Source: a virus. Taken from it: DNA of 52,981 nt. Every line of letters begins with the position of its first letter. Within the stretch, counting starts at the first letter, position 1. The notes below the pieces were generated by a model. It had not been told where the DNA came from. It did no database searches and was given only the letters and a program-made list of their open reading frames with translations. The stretch lies in the UHGV virus genome UHGV-1367038. One strand, 5' to 3'. Positions 2,374 to 47,293 of the stretch are shown here, in pieces. The translations under genes were made by a program, and so were the position numbers.

Positions 2374-4149
2374 ATGATTTACACAACAGGCACGATAGCC
2401 GTTAGCGGAAAAACAGTTACCGGAACGGGGACTGAATTCAACGCCGCATTATCTCTGATCAGAGTGGGTTGCACTCTTATTGCCATTAGTAATCCGGTGC
2501 AGATTTTCTCAATCACAGAGGTAAAAAGCGCGACAAGTTTGTCAGTAACTCCGGCAGCAAGCCCGGCAATTCCGGCTGGAACTAAATTTAGCATCCTGCT
2601 TTCAGATTCGATCTCTGTGGATGGTCTTGCTCAGGATGTTGCAGAAACACTGCGTTACTATCAGGGCAAGGAATCAGAAATAGCTGACGCCGTTGAATTT
2701 TTTAGCGACAACAAAGATGTGATTTCAGCCTCAAAATTAGCATCAGAATCAGCTACCACTGCAACCAATGCGGCAACAACAGCGACAACCGCCGCCAATT
2801 CAGCAAAGACATACAGAGACGAGGCCCACGAATACGCCAATCAGACGGCGCAGCCTTACGCGTATGTTTTGCAGCCGCTGCCGGACGTATGGATACCGTT
2901 TAATGATTCACTTGATATGCTCACTGGCTACGGCCCTGGCACTAAAAAAGTAACCATTGATGGTGAAGAAAAAACAATATCATCAGATAAGGTTGTTTCT
3001 TTCTCACGCGCAAGCACTGCGACCTATATCAATAAATCCGGTGTACTCACCACTGCTGATATTGATGAGCCGCGTTTCGAACGCGATGGATTATTAATCG
3101 AAGGCACACGCACAAATTACCTTACCAATTCTAATACGCCGACGTCGTGGAATGCTAACACAGGCGTCTTAGAATTAACTGAATCAGGGACGGATAGTTA
3201 CGGCTTTAATTATGGAACATTTACATGCACAGCAGATGCGGCATCAACAGCGACGTTAATTTCGACAGGCACATCAAGAGTAATAGCTACCGCATCCGGC
3301 GAATCAGTTACTATTTCCGGGCGCTTTAAGGGTACTGGCGTCCGCGCACGGGCGCGTATCTCAAAACTTAATGAAGATGGATCAGGTAATACATTCATTG
3401 CTGACGCGCTTTTGGATCTTGATACAAAAGTTTTAACGTACGCCGCTAATTATCTATCTGCTTACTTCGTTGATGAAGGAAACGGATGGCTTTTCTTTTC
3501 CACCACGTATACAGCAACCGAAGATATTGACGTCTACGCACGCTTTGAATTATCACCAAAAACCGGGGAAACATTAGCAATAGGCGACAGTATCACCATG
3601 ACCACGCCGCAGTATGAGTCTGGTTCTTGCGCATCATCGTTTATTGTATCAGGTGACAATCCAACCACACGAGCAAGCGACCTGGTAAGCATACCGACTA
3701 AGAATAACTTATTTAAGCCACCATTCAGTTTTTTACTTGAATTACATAAGGAATGGACAACAGCGCCAAACGCAGCACCTAGAGTATTTGATATTGCAAA
3801 CGCAAGCACAGGACAATCTATTATAGCTGCCATTAACAGAGGTAGCAGTAAATTTTACGTTTCCTTGTCTAACAGTTCTGGTGATTACATCAATTCTGCC
3901 GCTGATTCCGTATTGCCAAGTAAAGCCATTGTTGGTGCGGTAGCTAAAGGTGATGATACTTTTCACGCGATCATGGATGGTGTGGCCGTTGCAGATGCAA
4001 CATGTTCTTACGGTGGAGTAACTCAAGGCAAAAACATCAGATTCGGCGGTCAGGTAGCAGACGGAGCGCGCCACTTGTTCGGACATATAAGAAATTTTCG
4101 TATCTGGCACAAAGCATTAACTGATTCTCAATTAAGCGAAATTGTTTAA
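2374..4149 (+). CDS. Side tail fiber protein with C-terminal lectin/LamG-like domain
   Basis: 591 aa; GGAG RBS; N-terminal MIYTTGTIAVSGKTVTGTGTEF typical of enterobacterial phage tail fibers; Ala/Thr-rich shaft; position after J. Confidence 0.6.
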   Translation: MIYTTGTIAVSGKTVTGTGTEFNAALSLIRVGCTLIAISNPVQIFSITEVKSATSLSVTPAASPAIPAGTKFSILLSDSISVDGLAQDVAETLRYYQGKESEIADAVEFFSDNKDVISASKLASESATTATNAATTATTAANSAKTYRDEAHEYANQTAQPYAYVLQPLPDVWIPFNDSLDMLTGYGPGTKKVTIDGEEKTISSDKVVSFSRASTATYINKSGVLTTADIDEPRFERDGLLIEGTRTNYLTNSNTPTSWNANTGVLELTESGTDSYGFNYGTFTCTADAASTATLISTGTSRVIATASGESVTISGRFKGTGVRARARISKLNEDGSGNTFIADALLDLDTKVLTYAANYLSAYFVDEGNGWLFFSTTYTATEDIDVYARFELSPKTGETLAIGDSITMTTPQYESGSCASSFIVSGDNPTTRASDLVSIPTKNNLFKPPFSFLLELHKEWTTAPNAAPRVFDIANASTGQSIIAAINRGSSKFYVSLSNSSGDYINSAADSVLPSKAIVGAVAKGDDTFHAIMDGVAVADATCSYGGVTQGKNIRFGGQVADGARHLFGHIRNFRIWHKALTDSQLSEIV

Positions 4150-4159
4150 GGTGGTTAGC

Positions 4160-4426
4160 ATGAAAGACGTTAGCTTGCAATTTACTGATAAACAGCAATA
4201 CAACGACATTGTGATTAACAGCGGCTGGCTGGACGAAAATCAGCAAACCGTGTTTATTGATGATATTGGTTTTGTTCTTGTATTCGATGATCCAGAAAGC
4301 GACACGCCTGTACTGATTGAGAAAAAAGGCTATTACGTCAACATGCGCATAACTGGTGACGATGTTGATTTGTCGCCGCTGGAAAAATTCATCATTCCAG
4401 ATCCCGGCGTCCGCGCATGGGCTTAA
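4160..4426 (+). CDS. Hypothetical protein downstream of tail fiber
   Basis: ATG with AAGGTGG RBS; 88 aa; the listed ORF start at 4142 is a TTG. Confidence 0.5.
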   Translation: MKDVSLQFTDKQQYNDIVINSGWLDENQQTVFIDDIGFVLVFDDPESDTPVLIEKKGYYVNMRITGDDVDLSPLEKFIIPDPGVRAWA

Positions 4427-4470
4427 TGGTGCGATAGTAACAGCATGGTGATGTTGAAGACATCGCCGCG

Positions 4471-4500
4471 AAACGAGGCTAACGCCTCGTTTCTTTTTGT
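4471..4500 (+). terminator. Rho-independent terminator
   Basis: AAACGAGGC-taac-GCCTCGTTT then CTTTTTGT. Confidence 0.7.
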
Positions 4501-4519
4501 GTACCAAATAGTGACCAAA
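4499..4519. repeat. Arm-type direct repeat copy 1 (GTGTACCAAATAGTGACCAAA), candidate integrase arm site in attP
   Basis: 19/21 identical to copy at 4740..4760; flanks int. Confidence 0.45.
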
Positions 4520-4702
4520 TATCAAAAATCAAAAGCAAAAATAACGTAATACACTGTTTTATAAATGATTATTCGTTGCGCTAACCATTCCAGACAGGAC
4601 CAGCGCACTATGTTTAAAGGTGTTTAACTCCGTTCAATCTCTCCACTAAAATTACTTAAAAATCATCCGGTTGTAACCAAAATCAAGCGTCACGTTTCTA
4701 AT

Positions 4703-9893: not shown

Positions 9894-9911
9894 TATGGAA
9901 TTACCTCATGT

Positions 9912-11030
9912 TTACAAAATGGAATATTCAGGGTAATAAACAAAGCGCCCAATTTCTCCATGAGCCGGGCTGTAAATAATCACCGCCGCCAGCCGCCGTG
10001 AACGCCAGCCGCCATTCGTCGAGTAAGCATCTTTGCCAGCTAACGTTCCGTGATACTCGACAACGCCTAACGATGATTCAATCAGCCGCTGGTGATGCCA
10101 GTGTCCGCAATGAGCGTAAACCGACGACGATTTACCGAAATCCTCCCGCCAGTCAGAAACACAGGCAGCAAGTAAGGTTTCTGGTTTTTTGATGGTGTGT
10201 CCGTGGTGGTAAGCAAGGAATGTTTTTCCGTATTGTGTGTGGTGGACGATAGCAGGGGACACATCAACCGTTACGCGCGGTTCATCTTCGTAAAAAGCCG
10301 CCAGCGCCGCACGTAGCCAAATCATCCCCGACTGATCGTGATTGCCGGATAACACCTGGATCTCGACGTCCTTATGGTTTAACAACATTTTCCCCACCGC
10401 ACGCCGGACCGACCGGATCGCCACATAAACAAGTTTTGCGTAGCGTGAATCGCAATCTAAGACGTGATTACTTGATGGCGTCACTGGTAATAGCCCGTCC
10501 GTGTGAAGCACATCACCGCCGAGAAGCAATACAGCTTTTTCAGACGTTGGTGCAGCGCCTACAGCGTAGTCAAAGAAGTCATTTAACACGCGTTCAGCGA
10601 TCCCGGTGTCGTAGCTTTCTCCGCATTCAGCTTTATGCGCAAGCGCCCCGATATGCAGATCGAATACCGGATAAAGGGCCAGGCTTTTCTGAAAATCAAT
10701 TTCCGGCACTGGCACGGCTTCCGCGCGCGGCATTTCTTCCGTAAATGCGTCACAAGCTGCCTGCATTAGCCTTTCCATTTCCTCACGGTCACGGGCCGTT
10801 TTAATCCAGCGCATGATTACATTGCCATCTTTATCAACGAGCAATGATTCACCATTGACACCAAAACCCGGCGCGCGGCGCGTGGATATTAAACCGCGTT
10901 TCGCCAGCCGTGCGCCCAGGCGCTCGACGTTGCGTTTTGCCATGCCGTACTTCTCAGCGATCTGTTTATACGTCAGGCCGCTGTTATGTTCAGCGATTAA
11001 TTCCTCATCGCTGATCTTTCTTTGTGACAT
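9912..11030 (-). CDS. HTH domain fused to calcineurin-like metallophosphoesterase (Mre11/SbcD-like motifs)
   Basis: N-terminal HTH (LTYKQIAEKYGMAKRNVERL); DLH, GGDVLH, GNHD, GHWHH motifs; start taken at ATG 11030 with GAGGA RBS (alternative 11045). Confidence 0.6.
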   Translation of the reverse strand: MSQRKISDEELIAEHNSGLTYKQIAEKYGMAKRNVERLGARLAKRGLISTRRAPGFGVNGESLLVDKDGNVIMRWIKTARDREEMERLMQAACDAFTEEMPRAEAVPVPEIDFQKSLALYPVFDLHIGALAHKAECGESYDTGIAERVLNDFFDYAVGAAPTSEKAVLLLGGDVLHTDGLLPVTPSSNHVLDCDSRYAKLVYVAIRSVRRAVGKMLLNHKDVEIQVLSGNHDQSGMIWLRAALAAFYEDEPRVTVDVSPAIVHHTQYGKTFLAYHHGHTIKKPETLLAACVSDWREDFGKSSSVYAHCGHWHHQRLIESSLGVVEYHGTLAGKDAYSTNGGWRSRRLAAVIIYSPAHGEIGRFVYYPEYSIL

Positions 11031-11159
11031 AACGTTATTCCTCATGTTTACAGAATGTATATTTATTTTCCGTAAAACGCGCTACAACGCAAAATCCCAC
11101 CGCGTAACCCACTTATAAGAGTGCAGTGTCTTTCTTGCGTCAGAGGCGCTATCAGGTGG

Positions 11160-11393
11160 CTATTTTTTGATTTTTAAGATGACATAAACGTTAGCTTGTT
11201 GGCGTCCATGCAATTTACTCCTGCAAATGGCTATTACTCCGGCCTGTTCCAGAGATCGGATCGCTAGCTTAACACTTTGCCGACTCACTCCCAACCTGTC
11301 AGCAAGCATGATAAGTGATATTTGATAACCTCCCGTCCGGCAATGCACAGCCAGCAGATCGTAAACTTTACGCTCAGTTTTGGTTAATTTCAT
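11160..11393 (-). CDS. Small winged-helix DNA-binding protein
   Basis: 77 aa; wHTH pattern LADRLGVSRQSVKLAIRSLEQAGVI. Confidence 0.5.
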   Translation of the reverse strand: MKLTKTERKVYDLLAVHCRTGGYQISLIMLADRLGVSRQSVKLAIRSLEQAGVIAICRSKLHGRQQANVYVILKIKK

Positions 11394-11520
11394 GAAAAGC
11401 CCTTAAACGCTCTATAACGAAGAAAACGCATTAAGCCAAGCAAGTCTAGCACTTGATATGTTTTATCGCGTTAGTGGCGCGTTTAAGTTGGTTATTTGGG
11501 GTTTTTGTGAAGCTTGGTAG

Positions 11521-12513
11521 TCAAAGAGCGCCAGCGCGGGTGTCGCGTAGCGTTTTTGGTTTTAGTAAGAAATCTAGTGTCGCAGTGAAGCCATTGCCGA
11601 AGTAAAAATCTGAGGCCGTATTTTTGAACGCTTCGAAGTAGCTGATAAAGCCTTTGATGCTTTTATCTTTCAGGTAGTCAGAGAACGCATAAATTTTACG
11701 TTCCAGATCCCGATCAAGTTCAGCAGGTGGTAACAGGCCATCAAACGTGCTGTTAAATGCTTCCACTACGTCGGCGGCGTTTACGGTAGCTGATAGCTTG
11801 CGCCATTGTTCAGCATCAGCCAGATACCCATCGAATTTAGTTACCCGGCAAATGTTAATAGGCTTAGGCACTCCACCACGACTACGCCATTGAGTCAAAG
11901 CCCATTCAATTACTAATGTGATCTCATCCTCCGTATATGCCTTACGTGTTTTTGTTTCTGTCAGTAGTTCGATAAATGGTTTTGCGTCACGACATTTGCA
12001 TCCTGCCTTGTCGTTGTAGAAGGCTAGGCAACGCAATGCTGCCAAATTAGCCGCCTGATCTTCTTCGCTAATAGGCCCGTCTTTTTCCAATACACGGAGT
12101 GTATTGTTTTTAATGTTCTCTTTACTGGTTATATATGACTGATTAGGGTGTCTCTCTGACACTACCCCCGGTGTCACAGTGACACTACCCTGGTGTCTCT
12201 CTGACACTACCCCCGGTGTCTCTCTGACACTACCCTGTAATGATGGTAAGACGATTACATAGAAGTTACTTGTTTGCTCTTTTCCTCCTATTAGATATCG
12301 AGGTTGCTTAATCAATAACCCTTTCTCACAAAGAGCATCAATAGCCCGCATAGCTGTGCTTTTGCCTATTTCGCATTGCTTTGCTATGTGCTGGTAAGAA
12401 GGGTAACATTCGCCGTTATCGTTAGCGTTATCAGCCAACTTTAACAGCACAAGTTTGTGCATTGGGTTGCCGACTTCAGTATGAAAGACTTCAACCATTA
12501 GCCGCATACTCAT
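11521..12513 (-). CDS. Replication initiator (lambda O-like, N-terminal HTH) containing origin iterons
   Basis: HTH (SYQHIAKQCEIGKSTAMRAIDALCEKGLL); four iterons inside the ORF; AGGAGG RBS before ATG 12513 (alternative 12519; listed start 12561 is TTG). Confidence 0.7.
   Translation of the reverse strand: MSMRLMVEVFHTEVGNPMHKLVLLKLADNANDNGECYPSYQHIAKQCEIGKSTAMRAIDALCEKGLLIKQPRYLIGGKEQTSNFYVIVLPSLQGSVRETPGVVSERHQGSVTVTPGVVSERHPNQSYITSKENIKNNTLRVLEKDGPISEEDQAANLAALRCLAFYNDKAGCKCRDAKPFIELLTETKTRKAYTEDEITLVIEWALTQWRSRGGVPKPINICRVTKFDGYLADAEQWRKLSATVNAADVVEAFNSTFDGLLPPAELDRDLERKIYAFSDYLKDKSIKGFISYFEAFKNTASDFYFGNGFTATLDFLLKPKTLRDTRAGAL
12147..12236. repeat. Four tandem ~22-bp iterons (GGTGTCTCTCTGACACTACCCC), candidate replication origin
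   Basis: Direct repeats each containing a GTGTC..GACAC palindrome; AT-rich segment on the gene-downstream side; inside O-like gene. Confidence 0.7.
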
Positions 12514-12821
12514 AAACATTGGCCTCCTATGGTTAAAATGAACGCGCGGGCGGGTATCCAATTAGCATTAGATAGCGGTGAGTGACCGCTTAACAGATCC
12601 CGCCGTTGCGTGATATTTGTCTTTCGCTTCGCAGCGACACCGGATTTTTAAAGAGCATGAGGTATGCGCCTTTTTGTGCTATTCCGTTATCTTTTTTCTT
12701 GCGTCTTTGCAACTATGGCCTTACCTTGTCTGCAAGTTTACAGAATGGAGTTTTTAGATCAAGACTTGAAAAATACATTTTGTGACTTGTATCAAACTTT
12801 TTGAGGTTATAGGGTAGCGAC

Positions 12822-13469
12822 ATGAAAACAAAATGGTATGACTTAGCAAAGCAGCTCATGCGAGCGCAAGGCATGAGCCAGGATTCACTCGCGGATCTCA
12901 TGGGGATAACTAAAGGCGGCCTGTCACACTGGCTTAACGGTCGCCGCGAGCCAAATCTTGAAGATATTGCGCGGATTATGCGGGCACTTGGTCGTCGGCA
13001 GTTCACTGTTACCCATGATGGAATGGTCATTGATGATTCTGTTTCTAACACGTTACCGGGAGCGCCGCAGCGTGATTTAGGCAGTTACCCGGTTGTTGAC
13101 TGGAAGGACACAGTAAACAATATGGAAGATACAAGGCGATCAACATTACCACACGTTACGACTAGCGTTATTTGTTCAGATGATAGTTACTGGCTGGTTG
13201 CTAAAGGTGAATCAATGAACGCGCCGCAGGGGTTGAGCATCCCTGCCGGGACGATGATACTTGTTGACCCACACGCGCCAGCTATCGATGGAAAGCTGGT
13301 TATAGCACAGCTTGAGGAAGGGCAAATACCGACGTTTAAACAGTTGATTATTGATGGAGGTCAAAGGCTTTTACGTTCGCTTAACCCGCTGTATCCACCA
13401 ATCCCCATGAATCCTGAATCGAAAATCATAGGCGTGGTGGTGGACGCGAAGATCGTAAACCTGCCATAA
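12822..13469 (+). CDS. cI: CI-like repressor (HTH plus S24 LexA-like peptidase domain)
   Basis: 215 aa; N-terminal XRE HTH; C-terminal AKGESM serine motif; ATG 8 nt after a TATAGG -10-like hexamer (possibly leaderless). Confidence 0.85.
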   Translation: MKTKWYDLAKQLMRAQGMSQDSLADLMGITKGGLSHWLNGRREPNLEDIARIMRALGRRQFTVTHDGMVIDDSVSNTLPGAPQRDLGSYPVVDWKDTVNNMEDTRRSTLPHVTTSVICSDDSYWLVAKGESMNAPQGLSIPAGTMILVDPHAPAIDGKLVIAQLEEGQIPTFKQLIIDGGQRLLRSLNPLYPPIPMNPESKIIGVVVDAKIVNLP

Positions 13470-13475
13470 AAAATT

Positions 13476-13500
13476 AGCCGCCGAATGGCGGCTTTTCTTT
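13476..13500 (+). terminator. Rho-independent terminator after cI
   Basis: AGCCGCC-gaat-GGCGGCT then TTTCTTT. Confidence 0.7.
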
Positions 13501-13593
13501 GCCCTGAAAACACCAAAACGTAAACATAAAACGTGTTTTATTATTTAAATATCAATGACATATAAAATATTTTAAAAAAGTATACAAAATGGA

Positions 13594-13622
13594 TTGACTC
13601 GGTGTATCACGGGGCGTATATT
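13594..13622 (+). promoter_or_regulatory. pL-like sigma70 promoter
   Basis: TTGACT - 17 bp - TATATT; TATACAAAATGGA motif abuts the -35. Confidence 0.55.
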
Positions 13623-13664
13623 TCGAGGCAAAGGAGGTAGCAAGGCAGGGGAAAGAAGGTTACT

Positions 13665-13702
13665 TGCTCTTTAACAATCTGGTCAGCCGCTGGAAGTGCG
13701 GC
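13665..13702 (+). promoter_or_regulatory. nutL-like site: boxA-like TGCTCTTTAAC plus boxB-like hairpin GCCGC-tggaagt-GCGGC
   Basis: Between pL-like promoter and N-like gene, spacing as in lambda nut sites. Confidence 0.4.
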
Positions 13703-13758
13703 AATTAATGAAGATGATTTTTATTAAGTATCATCATGGGATATAAGGAGATCAGATT

Positions 13759-14049
13759 ATGACCGTAACAATTATGTATGGCAAATGTGATAGCAAAATA
13801 AATGCCAGGGAACGCAGAAGAATAAAAAGAGAAAACGAAAGAAAATCATCACCTGCAATCAATAAAACTGACAATGTTGATAAAGCTATTCGTTTTGCAA
13901 ACGTAGAAAGATGCAAACCGAATGGCATTAAAGAGCATCGCAAAGGTGCGGCAAAATGGTATGCGGAAAACGAAAGCGGCAATTACTACCACGCAACACA
14001 ACCGCGTAGTCTAGGGGAAAAACCCCTGGATAAAGTACGCTACAGATAA
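13759..14049 (+). CDS. N-like transcription antiterminator
   Basis: 96 aa basic protein; N-terminal MTVTIMYGK..INARERRRIKRENERK resembles the P22/lambda N arginine-rich motif; AAGGAG RBS; first gene after pL-like promoter. Confidence 0.55.
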   Translation: MTVTIMYGKCDSKINARERRRIKRENERKSSPAINKTDNVDKAIRFANVERCKPNGIKEHRKGAAKWYAENESGNYYHATQPRSLGEKPLDKVRYR

Positions 14050-14079
14050 TACAAAATGTAAACTTTCAAAGGTGACATT

Positions 14080-14202
14080 ATGGTTGTTCAGGCGCTTCAA
14101 TTCAAACTGGCTGTAGCGGAAATGCTTCACGATGCCGAAATGTGGAGCACCGCGAATAAAGCTTTATATGTAGTGTTAACAGCGAGGGAGATTAAAGGGT
14201 GA
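14080..14202 (+). CDS. Small hypothetical protein (40 aa)
   Basis: AAAGGTGA RBS; stop overlaps GTG start of erf. Confidence 0.35.
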   Translation: MVVQALQFKLAVAEMLHDAEMWSTANKALYVVLTAREIKG

Positions 14203-21486: not shown

Positions 21487-21508
21487 TGTTTACAAAATGG
21501 CGTCATTG

Positions 21509-21576: not shown

Positions 21577-21647
21577 AACAAAATGCTCTTTAAAAATCCG
21601 GTAACGCTGAAATGCGTAAAAATCACCTGAAAAAAGGAGAGAGCATT

Positions 21648-27782: not shown

Positions 27783-27826
27783 GTTTACAAAATGGCATTG
27801 TTCCGGCAGTGCCATTTTGTTATAAA
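27783..27826 (+). promoter_or_regulatory. Conserved inverted-repeat element ACAAAATGGCA-N12-TGCCATTTTGT followed by TATAAA
   Basis: Homologous to elements at 44124..44166 and 47170..47217. Confidence 0.45.
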
Positions 27827-47126: not shown

Positions 47127-47169
47127 AACATCCCCCTTTGCGTAACGTCTTTCTCATTTGCTTTCTGTA

Positions 47170-47217
47170 TACAATATGGAGTTCATAAAGTGAAGCCATT
47201 TTGAAAACTGGTTATAA
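47170..47217 (+). promoter_or_regulatory. Conserved inverted-repeat element TACAATATGG-N16-CCATTTTG followed by TATAAT
   Basis: Homolog of 44124..44166; near-CRP site TGTGA-N6-TCTCA at 47222..47237. Confidence 0.5.
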
Positions 47218-47293
47218 TTCCTGTGATGAATGTCTCATTTTTCGCGTAGAATCGCGTAAAGATATATACAAAATGTAACTTATAGGGGGTTTT

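Follow-up and report, generated by a model that had tools for sequence, protein, structure and literature searches.

The interval of about 300 bp (positions 12514-12821) that separates a cI-type repressor gene from an O-like replication initiator gene in the UHGV virus genome UHGV-1367038 (hereafter the window, meaning the whole stretch of 52,981 nucleotides analysed) is probably the conserved early control region of a coliphage of the mEpimmI group, and not a degraded or mis-sequenced cro locus. The immunity region of lambda runs cI - OR/PRM/PR - cro - cII - O - P, and the original prediction, made from the letters of the window alone, had held that no Cro-sized open reading frame (ORF) exists in this interval and that the lytic/lysogenic switch may be wired differently. 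Both statements were borne out by the present analysis. The absence of Cro is nevertheless not special to the window, since no recognisable lambda-type cro or cII was present in any mEpimmI locus examined, and what the lineage of the window has lost is not a canonical Cro but a gene for a winged-helix protein of 81-85 amino acids (aa) of the HTH_36 family.

Coding content of the interval and identity of the phage

An ORF scan and homology searches confirmed that nothing of Cro size is encoded between the two genes. The longest minus-strand ORF lying wholly within 12514-12821 spans 12590..12712 and has 40 aa from a TTG start; the maximum of about 36 codons given earlier corresponds to a real piece, with an ATG overlapping the cI start codon and a stop at 12713, and is exceeded by this TTG ORF. 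Short plus-strand ORFs of the interval measured 46-59 aa. A total of 28 distinct versions of the control region were aligned and, with starts relaxed to ATG, GTG, TTG, CTG, ATT, ATC or ATA, no ORF was conserved over them: stop positions, ORF lengths and frames varied from version to version, and small indels were present in that part of the alignment. Six-frame tblastn produced no match in the interval, whether the queries were the canonical Cro and CII of a distant relative (L052, described below) or the small proteins encoded first in the leftward operon of close relatives; the Cro query matched only the helix-turn-helix (HTH) of CI in the window, and the CP76-type CII of L052 found no match in any of the six frames of the window. 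When the N-domain of CI and the Cro proteins of lambda, 434 and P22 (approximate sequences) were run by phmmer against the 448 window ORFs of at least 35 aa, CI alone was recovered, the rest having E > 0.1. Pfam searches of 20 small or early ORFs revealed no further HTH_3 protein and no CII; they returned an AlpA/HTH_23-like protein near the integrase, a Kil-like peptide, DUF7274 and a Q antiterminator. A cro divergent from cI across a shared operator was therefore missing as an ORF, as a remnant and as an HTH_3 paralogue, and no cII was found downstream of its expected position.

By its sequence, the window is the genome of a temperate coliphage of the mEpimmI (mEp021-type) group. It showed 88-92% DNA identity by megablast to mEp010, mEp021 and five further phages; the matches comprised these 7 phages and 35 E. 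coli prophages, and synteny with mEp021 was maintained. CI was 98.1% identical over 215 aa to the mEp021 repressor Rep021 (tblastn), and its best solved relative was the lambda repressor (PDB 3bdn, E 3e-19). The 96-aa N-like protein was 93.7% identical to mEp021 Gp17, matched phrog_271 (E 2e-10) and kept the arginine-rich motif (...NARERRRIKRE..., R17, R19, R20, R21 and R24), which includes the conserved arginines 17, 19, 20 and 24 of Gp17-type proteins of the group. A tail-tip J-like ORF of 1,497 codons continues in frame from the last nucleotide of the window into the first (52981 to 1; about 50750 through 2265). This marks the window as a complete genome, circularly permuted and closed, in the excised form and without host flanks. 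The tail-tip and tail-fibre genes adjoin the integrase gene, and attP is flanked by the tail-fibre and integrase genes.

In the searched text of the paper that described the group in 2025 (Negrete-Mendez et al. 2025, PMC11893012), mEpimmI phages are presented as Nus-dependent, non-lambdoid temperate phages sharing one immunity, with the mEp021/mEp010 family being Mexican E. coli phages; they are reported there to be as frequent as lambdoid phages among human gut isolates, Rep021 to confer immunity to every group member tested, and Gp17 to act at three nut sites (nutL, nutR1 and nutR2). The window shares with mEp021 the positions of these three sites and the gene order, namely integrase, leftward replication operon, cI, and then rightward N/erf/ssb, followed by Q, lysis and structural genes. 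It differs from mEp021 in three respects: it lacks mEp021_14, an 81-aa HTH gene heading the leftward operon; it lacks a segment of about 240 bp carrying gp16 between the rightward promoter and gp17; and it alone of the two has a rare gene for a 77-aa winged-helix protein after the initiator.

The layout of more distant relatives was informative about the origin of this arrangement. The CI proteins of the IMG/VR loci L050-L052 have the N-terminus of that of the window (MKTKWYDLAK...) and a recognition helix similar to it; these loci further have an O-like HTH_36 initiator downstream and, in the control region, GTATACA/GTTTACA-type repeats. In L052 (IMG/VR UViG_2852055501_000007, 3164-4654), whose CI is 37% identical to that of the window and has the same MKTKWYDLAK start, the order is cI, a divergent 76-aa HTH_3 Cro (E 2e-14), a CP76-type CII and the O-like initiator, whereas the window has neither Cro nor CII between cI and the initiator. 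Because this distant relative keeps cro and cII, the group seems to have departed from the canonical layout, and the absence of both genes in mEpimmI is probably a derived state, of which the window is the most reduced form.

A small winged-helix gene at the head of the leftward operon

We surveyed 46 IMG/VR loci, retrieved by way of CI, as well as phage and E. coli records, reading each downstream from the conserved Shine-Dalgarno of the leftward operon. Compared with the window, mEp021 and mEp010 have approximately 265 additional bp, located precisely between the Shine-Dalgarno, which is shared, and the start of the initiator; on either side the alignment is base for base. These 265 bp encode mEp021_14 (gp14), annotated as "HTH, similar to MarR"; the small gene is wholly absent from the window, and not frameshifted. 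A winged-helix protein of 81-85 aa headed the leftward operon in 45 of the 49 loci with the control region. The four loci without it were the window, E. coli PAR and L007, which start with the O-like initiator, and L046, which starts with a Lin1244-type initiator. The junction of the window (TAGGAGGCCAAT[G/A]TTTATGAGTATGCGG) was also found in three E. coli genomes, PAR, KKa019 and Ecol_244 (99.4-99.8% identity over 801 bp), and in two contigs, one from IMG/VR and one from an ENA metagenome. The E. coli prophages bearing it sit beside dgcM, in three hosts from China, Japan and Argentina, and identity of the window to PAR and KKa019 is only about 95% over the 10.6 kb from integrase to ssb and 84-88% beyond. 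As read from this distribution, the small gene was lost at least twice independently, once in the lineage of the window and once in the Lin1244-type module of L046.

The identity of the missing protein was indicated by its matches. The small proteins matched HTH_36 and the N-termini of replication-initiator PHROGs, and not the HTH_3 models of Cro and CI: phrog_4617 aligned from their first residue (positions 1-89, E 2e-9 to 4e-23), and HTH_36 scored E 3e-6 and 27.3 bits with the L005 protein (cut-off 25 bits) and E 1.2e-3 and 19.1 bits, below that cut-off, with gp14. Those of the MSM type aligned end to end with residues 3-92 of the window initiator (29-36% identity, E 1e-12 to 4e-17), their residue 1 corresponding to the codon at 12513, and the five MYYVRK-type proteins aligned only partially with the same N-domain (E about 1e-8 to 1e-7). 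Used as queries against the six frames of the window, the small proteins gave a sole significant match, from 12513 to 12244, at the N-terminus of the O-like initiator. This gene is indeed the first on the minus strand, as had been predicted: its residues 3-92 form an HTH_36 winged-helix domain (E 4e-15), several initiator PHROGs match it and four iterons lie within it. An alternative start at 12519 is less well conserved, the upstream ATG being missing in L007. Within the O-like initiator N-domain family (HTH_36/Phage_rep_O; PHROGs 4617, 8540 and 391) the small proteins and window residues 3-92 thus match alike from the first residue, and the group differs in that most mEpimmI phages encode the domain also, or only, as a separate protein of 81-85 aa.

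The type of small protein was associated with the type of initiator. The MYYVRK type accompanied an O-like initiator in 5 of 5 loci and the MSM type a Lin1244/DUF4373-type initiator in 40 of 40, so that by this pairing the small gene follows the initiator and not the immunity region; moreover, the predicted recognition helix of the MSM type occurred in several versions among phages with the same CI and control region. A Cro has to recognise the operators of its CI and to be inherited along with them; the small gene does neither, four loci manage without it, and we assign it to the replication module. On these grounds it is probably not a Cro homologue. The initiators themselves are modular (window 11524-12513 compared with L004-L006, L046 and others): an HTH_36 or a Lin1244/DUF4373 N-domain is placed on the same C-terminus, the last 190 residues or so being common to both types and 76-95% identical. 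Iterons also differ between O-like variants (GTGTCAGAGAGACAC in the window, GTGGCAGAGAGCAAC in mEp021 and GTGACACAGAGTCAC in mEp010), and the Lin1244-type genes had no exact repeats except in one locus. The gp14-type protein did not co-vary with the iteron sequence and is therefore not obviously an iteron binder.

Two further products of the leftward operon were noted. The 377-aa protein (9912-11045, minus strand) is conserved in this operon and matches phrog_704 ('DNA repair exonuclease', E 2.5e-137); its N-terminal winged-helix segment, with weak IclR/MarR-type matches, adds a further DNA-binding domain to the early operon. A protein of 236-256 aa is the third leftward-operon gene in L006, L009-L014, L020, L022, L024, L025, L027, L045, L047 and L048. 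In L006 it bears the annotation of a KilAC-domain antirepressor, and a protein of this kind could reinforce lytic commitment once the leftward operon fires; the window contains no homologue of the KilAC antirepressor that many relatives carry in this operon.

Anatomy of the control region

Across the relatives, the 300-bp control region is conserved as a single block with CI (87-96% identity). Homology among these relatives ends directly after the Shine-Dalgarno (TAGGAG, 12529-12524), and on this alignment the site marks where the immunity module meets the replication module in the mosaic. The features of the region and of its surroundings are listed in Table 1.

Table 1. Features of the window bearing on the control region, with positions and strand.
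Feature	Position	Strand	Basis or remark
77-aa MarR-like winged-helix protein	11160..11393	-	Rare accessory gene, 1.1 kb away, beyond the initiator
O-like replication initiator	11521..12519	-	Conserved start ATG 12513 (MSMRL...); Pfam and PHROG matches
Four 23-bp iterons	12147-12235		Within the initiator gene
Shared Shine-Dalgarno TAGGAG (+ G here)	12523..12529	-	TAGGAG in 27/28 distinct sequences, CAGGAG in 1/28
Conserved Y-shaped leader RNA (three-way junction), 70 nt	12542..12611	-	Between nutL and the Shine-Dalgarno
nutL boxB hairpin (UCGCU-GCGA-AGCGA)	12624..12637	-	Aligns with the nutR1 and nutR2 boxB hairpins
nutL boxA TGCTCTTTAAAAA	12645..12657	-	One of 3 window matches, 0.31 expected
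Palindrome CTTGTCTGCAAG	12725..12736		Over the predicted PL start site
-10 of leftward promoter, TAAACT	12735..12740	-	Predicted; invariant in 28/28 distinct relatives
12-mer CATTCTGTAAAC, candidate CI operator core	12736..12747	-	Recurrence count
-35 of leftward early promoter, TTGATC (TTGACC in several relatives)	12757..12762	-	Predicted from the alignment
Palindrome TCAAGACTTGA	12759..12769		Overlaps the PL -35
-10 (TATAGG) of weak PRM-like promoter	12808..12813	+	Predicted by reading; below the promoter-scan threshold
CI-type repressor gene, 215 aa	12822..13469	+	Pfam HTH_3 and Peptidase_S24; tblastn to mEp021
Rightward early promoter, TTGACT, 17 nt, TATATT	13594..13622	+	Promoter scan; followed by nutR1 and the gp17 gene (13759..14049)
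nutR1 boxA	13665-13677	+	boxA match, boxB-like hairpin next
nutR2 boxA	21584-21596	+	boxA match, boxB-like hairpin next
CATTYTGTAWAC, exact copies	9910-9921, 11046-11057, 12736-12747, 13580-13591, 21488-21499, 27783-27794	all -	
CATTYTGTAWAC, near-copies	21557, 44122/44152, 47161-47275		

The three boxA copies are of the rrn type (TGCTCTTTAA[A/C]AA), each being followed by a boxB-like hairpin, and their positions agree with those of mEp021 nutL (upstream of the repressor gene), nutR1 (before gp17) and nutR2 (after the methyltransferase genes) (PMC11893012). In the nutL boxB, which belongs to a site about 70 nt downstream of the leftward promoter, 9 of the 10 paired bases were invariant and the closing pair was broken in 1 of the 28 relatives. 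On the rightward side, the gp16 segment (with a 37-aa gp16 ORF in mEp021) is missing at window 13635-13682 and present in L001 (4999-5245) and most other loci, about a quarter of the relatives lacking it as well; stretches copying boxA flank it in several relatives, which suggests deletion by recombination between repeats. A 40-aa ORF between gp17 and erf (14080-14202, plus strand) matched lambda Kil weakly (PF06301, E 1.7e-4, below the gathering score).

Between nutL and the Shine-Dalgarno the leader RNA is predicted to fold into a Y. The element (84 nt folded) had a dG of -29.4 kcal/mol and a z of -3.7, with 0 of 200 shuffles folding as well, and the whole 226-nt leader was no more stable than its shuffles (z -1.0). 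It is near-invariant among the relatives, with helices 2-4 paired in 100% of the cells of the alignment; covariation amounted to one compensatory change from G-C to U-A and one G-U/G-C change, sequence variation being too low for more. Rfam covariance models gave no match in 12500-12830 at E <= 1, and a search of 11000-14200 in E-value mode returned nothing in the interval between cI and the initiator. In lambda, pL is followed by nutL, an RNase III-sensitive hairpin and the ribosome site of N. The order promoter, nut site, large conserved stem-loop and Shine-Dalgarno of the first gene is common to both leaders; that of the window differs in preceding the replication operon and not N, in its three-way junction and in showing no sequence similarity. 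By analogy of position with the RNase III hairpin, the structure may be a processing or translational-control element.

The predicted leftward promoter, PL in mEp021 nomenclature, has a 16-nt spacer and a start near 12727-12729, and its -10 falls inside the 12-mer CATTCTGTAAAC. In front of cI, the plus-strand block ATAGGGTAGCGAC-ATG is invariant, as is the block ATAGGGTAGCGACATG at the PRM-like promoter in the 28 relatives; the invariance suggests a weak promoter whose transcript would start at the AUG or 1-2 nt before it. The sequence CATTYTGTAWAC occurs in 6 exact copies in the window against 0.03 expected. The copies lie at both early promoters (one of them abutting the PR -35), beside nutR2 and upstream of the DnaB gene and of the 377-aa gene, and four have counterparts at corresponding places in mEp021; in the late region, 12-mers form inverted pairs (ACAAAATGG, 14-16 nt, CCATTTTGT) before large genes. 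Related GTATACA/GTTTACA repeats, four in number, occupy the cI-cro spacer of L052. From its recurrence and placement the 12-mer is the best candidate for the CI operator, although as a dispersed element it could be a CI operator, a promoter element or an RNA hairpin.

The original prediction had also pointed to two short palindromes as possible operators. Both exist, CTTGTCTGCAAG lying one base away from the coordinates then given (12724..12735), and they differ in conservation. The arms of CTTGTCTGCAAG are both kept in 27 of the 28 relatives. The left arm of TCAAGACTTGA varies (CAAC, CAAT), and it is a weak operator candidate because the palindrome is not kept in several relatives of the same immunity group. 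A model in which the CAAG/CTTG arms make up a single dimer-site operator was discarded, their spacings being inconsistent (N1, N4, N8), and no regular three-site array was recognised in the control region beyond the recurrent 12-mer and the CAAG/CTTG palindromes. The interval does not consist mainly of operators and is a nut-leader region no less than an operator region: by prediction, about 60% of it is transcribed leader containing nutL and the conserved RNA structure. A -10-like TGTATACT at 13580-13587 (minus strand) faces a bidirectional intrinsic terminator that lies at 13476-13493, just past the cI stop, and a short leftward RNA is possible over 13468-13591 (minus strand), a region strongly conserved in relatives; at the cI terminator, Rfam gave its sole match in 11000-14200, a weak one on the plus strand to AaHKsRNA82 (E 0.096).

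A proposed switch without Cro and its alternatives

Lambda and the window have in common a CI homologue with an S24 domain, nut sites with boxA and boxB, and a Q-type late regulator. In both, a divergent early promoter faces the replication genes, and an N-type antiterminator is driven by another early promoter lying downstream of cI. They differ in that neither cro nor cII was found between promoter and initiator in the window, that its nut site directly follows the promoter on the replication side, that it has three nut sites against two, and that a tripartite operator was not recognised in it. A repressor divergent from the promoter of a replication initiator, with no Cro between them, is also seen in rstR-rstA of CTXphi, an unrelated filamentous phage whose repressor lacks the S24 domain and which has no N/Q antitermination.

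These elements can be assembled into a model that we consider probable. Its anatomy, homologies, distribution among loci and nut sites come from the sequences themselves, whereas the promoter positions, the identity of the operators and the way in which cI is shut off are inferred. In the order of the minus-strand transcript, the region consists of the predicted PL, with its -10 overlapping the candidate CI operator, nutL, the 70-nt Y-shaped leader and the Shine-Dalgarno, and on the plus strand a predicted weak promoter lies directly before cI. In most members the free 81-85-aa HTH_36 protein comes first after the Shine-Dalgarno, travelling with the replication module; in the lineage of the window the Shine-Dalgarno is joined straight to the O-like initiator, whose N-domain is the homologue of the missing protein. 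CI alone would shut both early promoters. Its C-terminal S24 domain is of the autocleavable type and cleavage is predicted, although it may differ from lambda's according to the searched text of the published description (PMC11893012). Once CI is inactivated, the rightward promoter would make the N-like Gp17, which would modify RNA polymerase at nutL and let leftward transcription continue through the replication operon; a terminator-like site lies after the DnaB gene, at 8453-8425. Transcription of cI would then fall without Cro, either because its weak promoter loses activation by CI or because the strong adjacent divergent promoter out-competes it.

Several observations weigh against this model. 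The predicted leftward promoter agrees with the consensus at only 8 of 12 positions in the window, below the promoter-scan threshold, the operators are no more than candidates, and the leader structure rests on thermodynamics and a single compensatory change. All seven cultured relatives in the phage database carry the small gene, and forms without it were seen only as prophages, metagenome contigs and the present circular sequence; their viability as phages is presumed. Finally, the DNA-reading half of the gp14-type protein is identical across phages with differing iterons, and a regulatory, even Cro-like, role of this protein is possible. The boldest reading, which we hold to be less likely than not, is that mEpimmI phages run a lambda-like CI/N/Q circuit wholly without Cro and CII. 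Commitment to lysis would then be set by the N-like antiterminator, which would gate the replication operon through nutL and the Y-shaped leader, with a contribution from CI-binding 12-mers scattered outside the two early promoters (before the DnaB and 377-aa genes, beside nutR2 and in the late region), and the small gene would be a dispensable replication accessory.

A first alternative is that the winged-helix domain itself is a Cro analogue feeding back on the early promoter, in most relatives as a free protein and in the window as the N-domain of the initiator, so that the window would have kept the function although the ORF is gone. The first 85 codons or so after the shared Shine-Dalgarno encode such a domain in 48 of the 49 loci, and the gp14-type recognition half is invariant in spite of the differences among iterons. 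We nevertheless regard this reading as unlikely. The recognition helix of the MSM-type proteins comes in several forms even where CI and control region are shared, and the replication module of L046 has no winged-helix domain of the HTH_36 kind at all. Furthermore, no iteron-like site was found outside 12147-12235, even with up to 3 mismatches and with the control region included; autoregulation by the initiator is therefore without sequence support.

It is about equally unlikely that the forms without the small gene belong to a line of prophages that are defective and in decay, in which nothing need replace the gene. No cultured phage in the phage collection has the junction of the window, and most of its occurrences are in prophages. 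Against decay, the window is a closed circular genome with the J-like ORF intact across its ends, and the early ORFs examined (cI, N-like, Q-like, initiator, DnaB and integrase) are all full length; the junction is present in differing backgrounds, in hosts from three countries, and loss of the gene in the Lin1244-type module of L046 was independent.

The original prediction had offered the 77-aa protein of the same leftward operon as a supplier of Cro function from another position, a proposal that we consider improbable. That the protein is a winged helix was upheld: it matched MarR_2 (E 6e-7), and its predicted fold resembled MarR and the LexA DNA-binding domains. It is a small stand-alone protein of DNA-binding type in the early leftward operon, and among the loci examined its gene occurred only in genomes without the first-position gene (the window, PAR and KKa019). 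However, it makes a poor substitute for Cro, since Ecol_244 and L007, which agree with the window in control region and junction, lack it, and it is missing as well from L046, which has no first gene either. The fold search returned a generic winged helix and no Cro, the sequence search of the PDB gave weak HTH matches only, and the PHROG matches were mostly to N-termini of replication initiators. The protein is about 21% identical to the first-position proteins, and its relatives are very rare: 5.8 billion proteins yielded only 4 clusters, whose contigs were either too short or too alike to throw light on function. Its gene, being outside the conserved immunity unit, does not travel with the operators, whereas a gene of the Cro type adjoins cI and its operators and is inherited with them. 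The 77-aa protein looks like the product of a rare accessory gene and not like a component of the switch.

Least credible of all is the idea that an error of sequencing or assembly hides a cro, or that the interval encodes some small unconventional protein. Although short ORFs are present on both of its strands and PHANOTATE called a 68-aa ORF upstream of cI in mEp010, the inconstancy of ORF lengths and frames over the 28 variants, the lack of any tblastn remnant and the absence, without frameshift, of the entire 265-bp gene relative to mEp021 speak against it, and an artefact is excluded because the same junction recurs in five other, independent assemblies.

The CI/Cro pair of lambda is the textbook bistable switch, and Cro is held necessary for efficient prophage induction. 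The mEpimmI phages keep regulators of the CI, N and Q types and show no Cro or CII, and variants of the window type are also without the only small DNA-binding gene at the position of cro. The novelty is modest, since the window represents natural variation inside a phage group described only recently. In the text searched, the published description (PMC11893012) holds no discussion of the absence of cro and cII, which extends to all mEpimmI loci examined, of the variable first gene or of the dispensable free initiator domain. A literature search on cro-less temperate phages returned nothing specific. For annotation, the gene at the cro position of mEpimmI phages should not be called cro, and the interval should be described as promoter, nutL and leader. 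With mEp021, which has gp14, and the lineage of the window, which lacks it, nature provides a pair in which to ask how a CI-based switch commits to lysis without Cro and what role a free copy of the origin-binding domain of the initiator plays.

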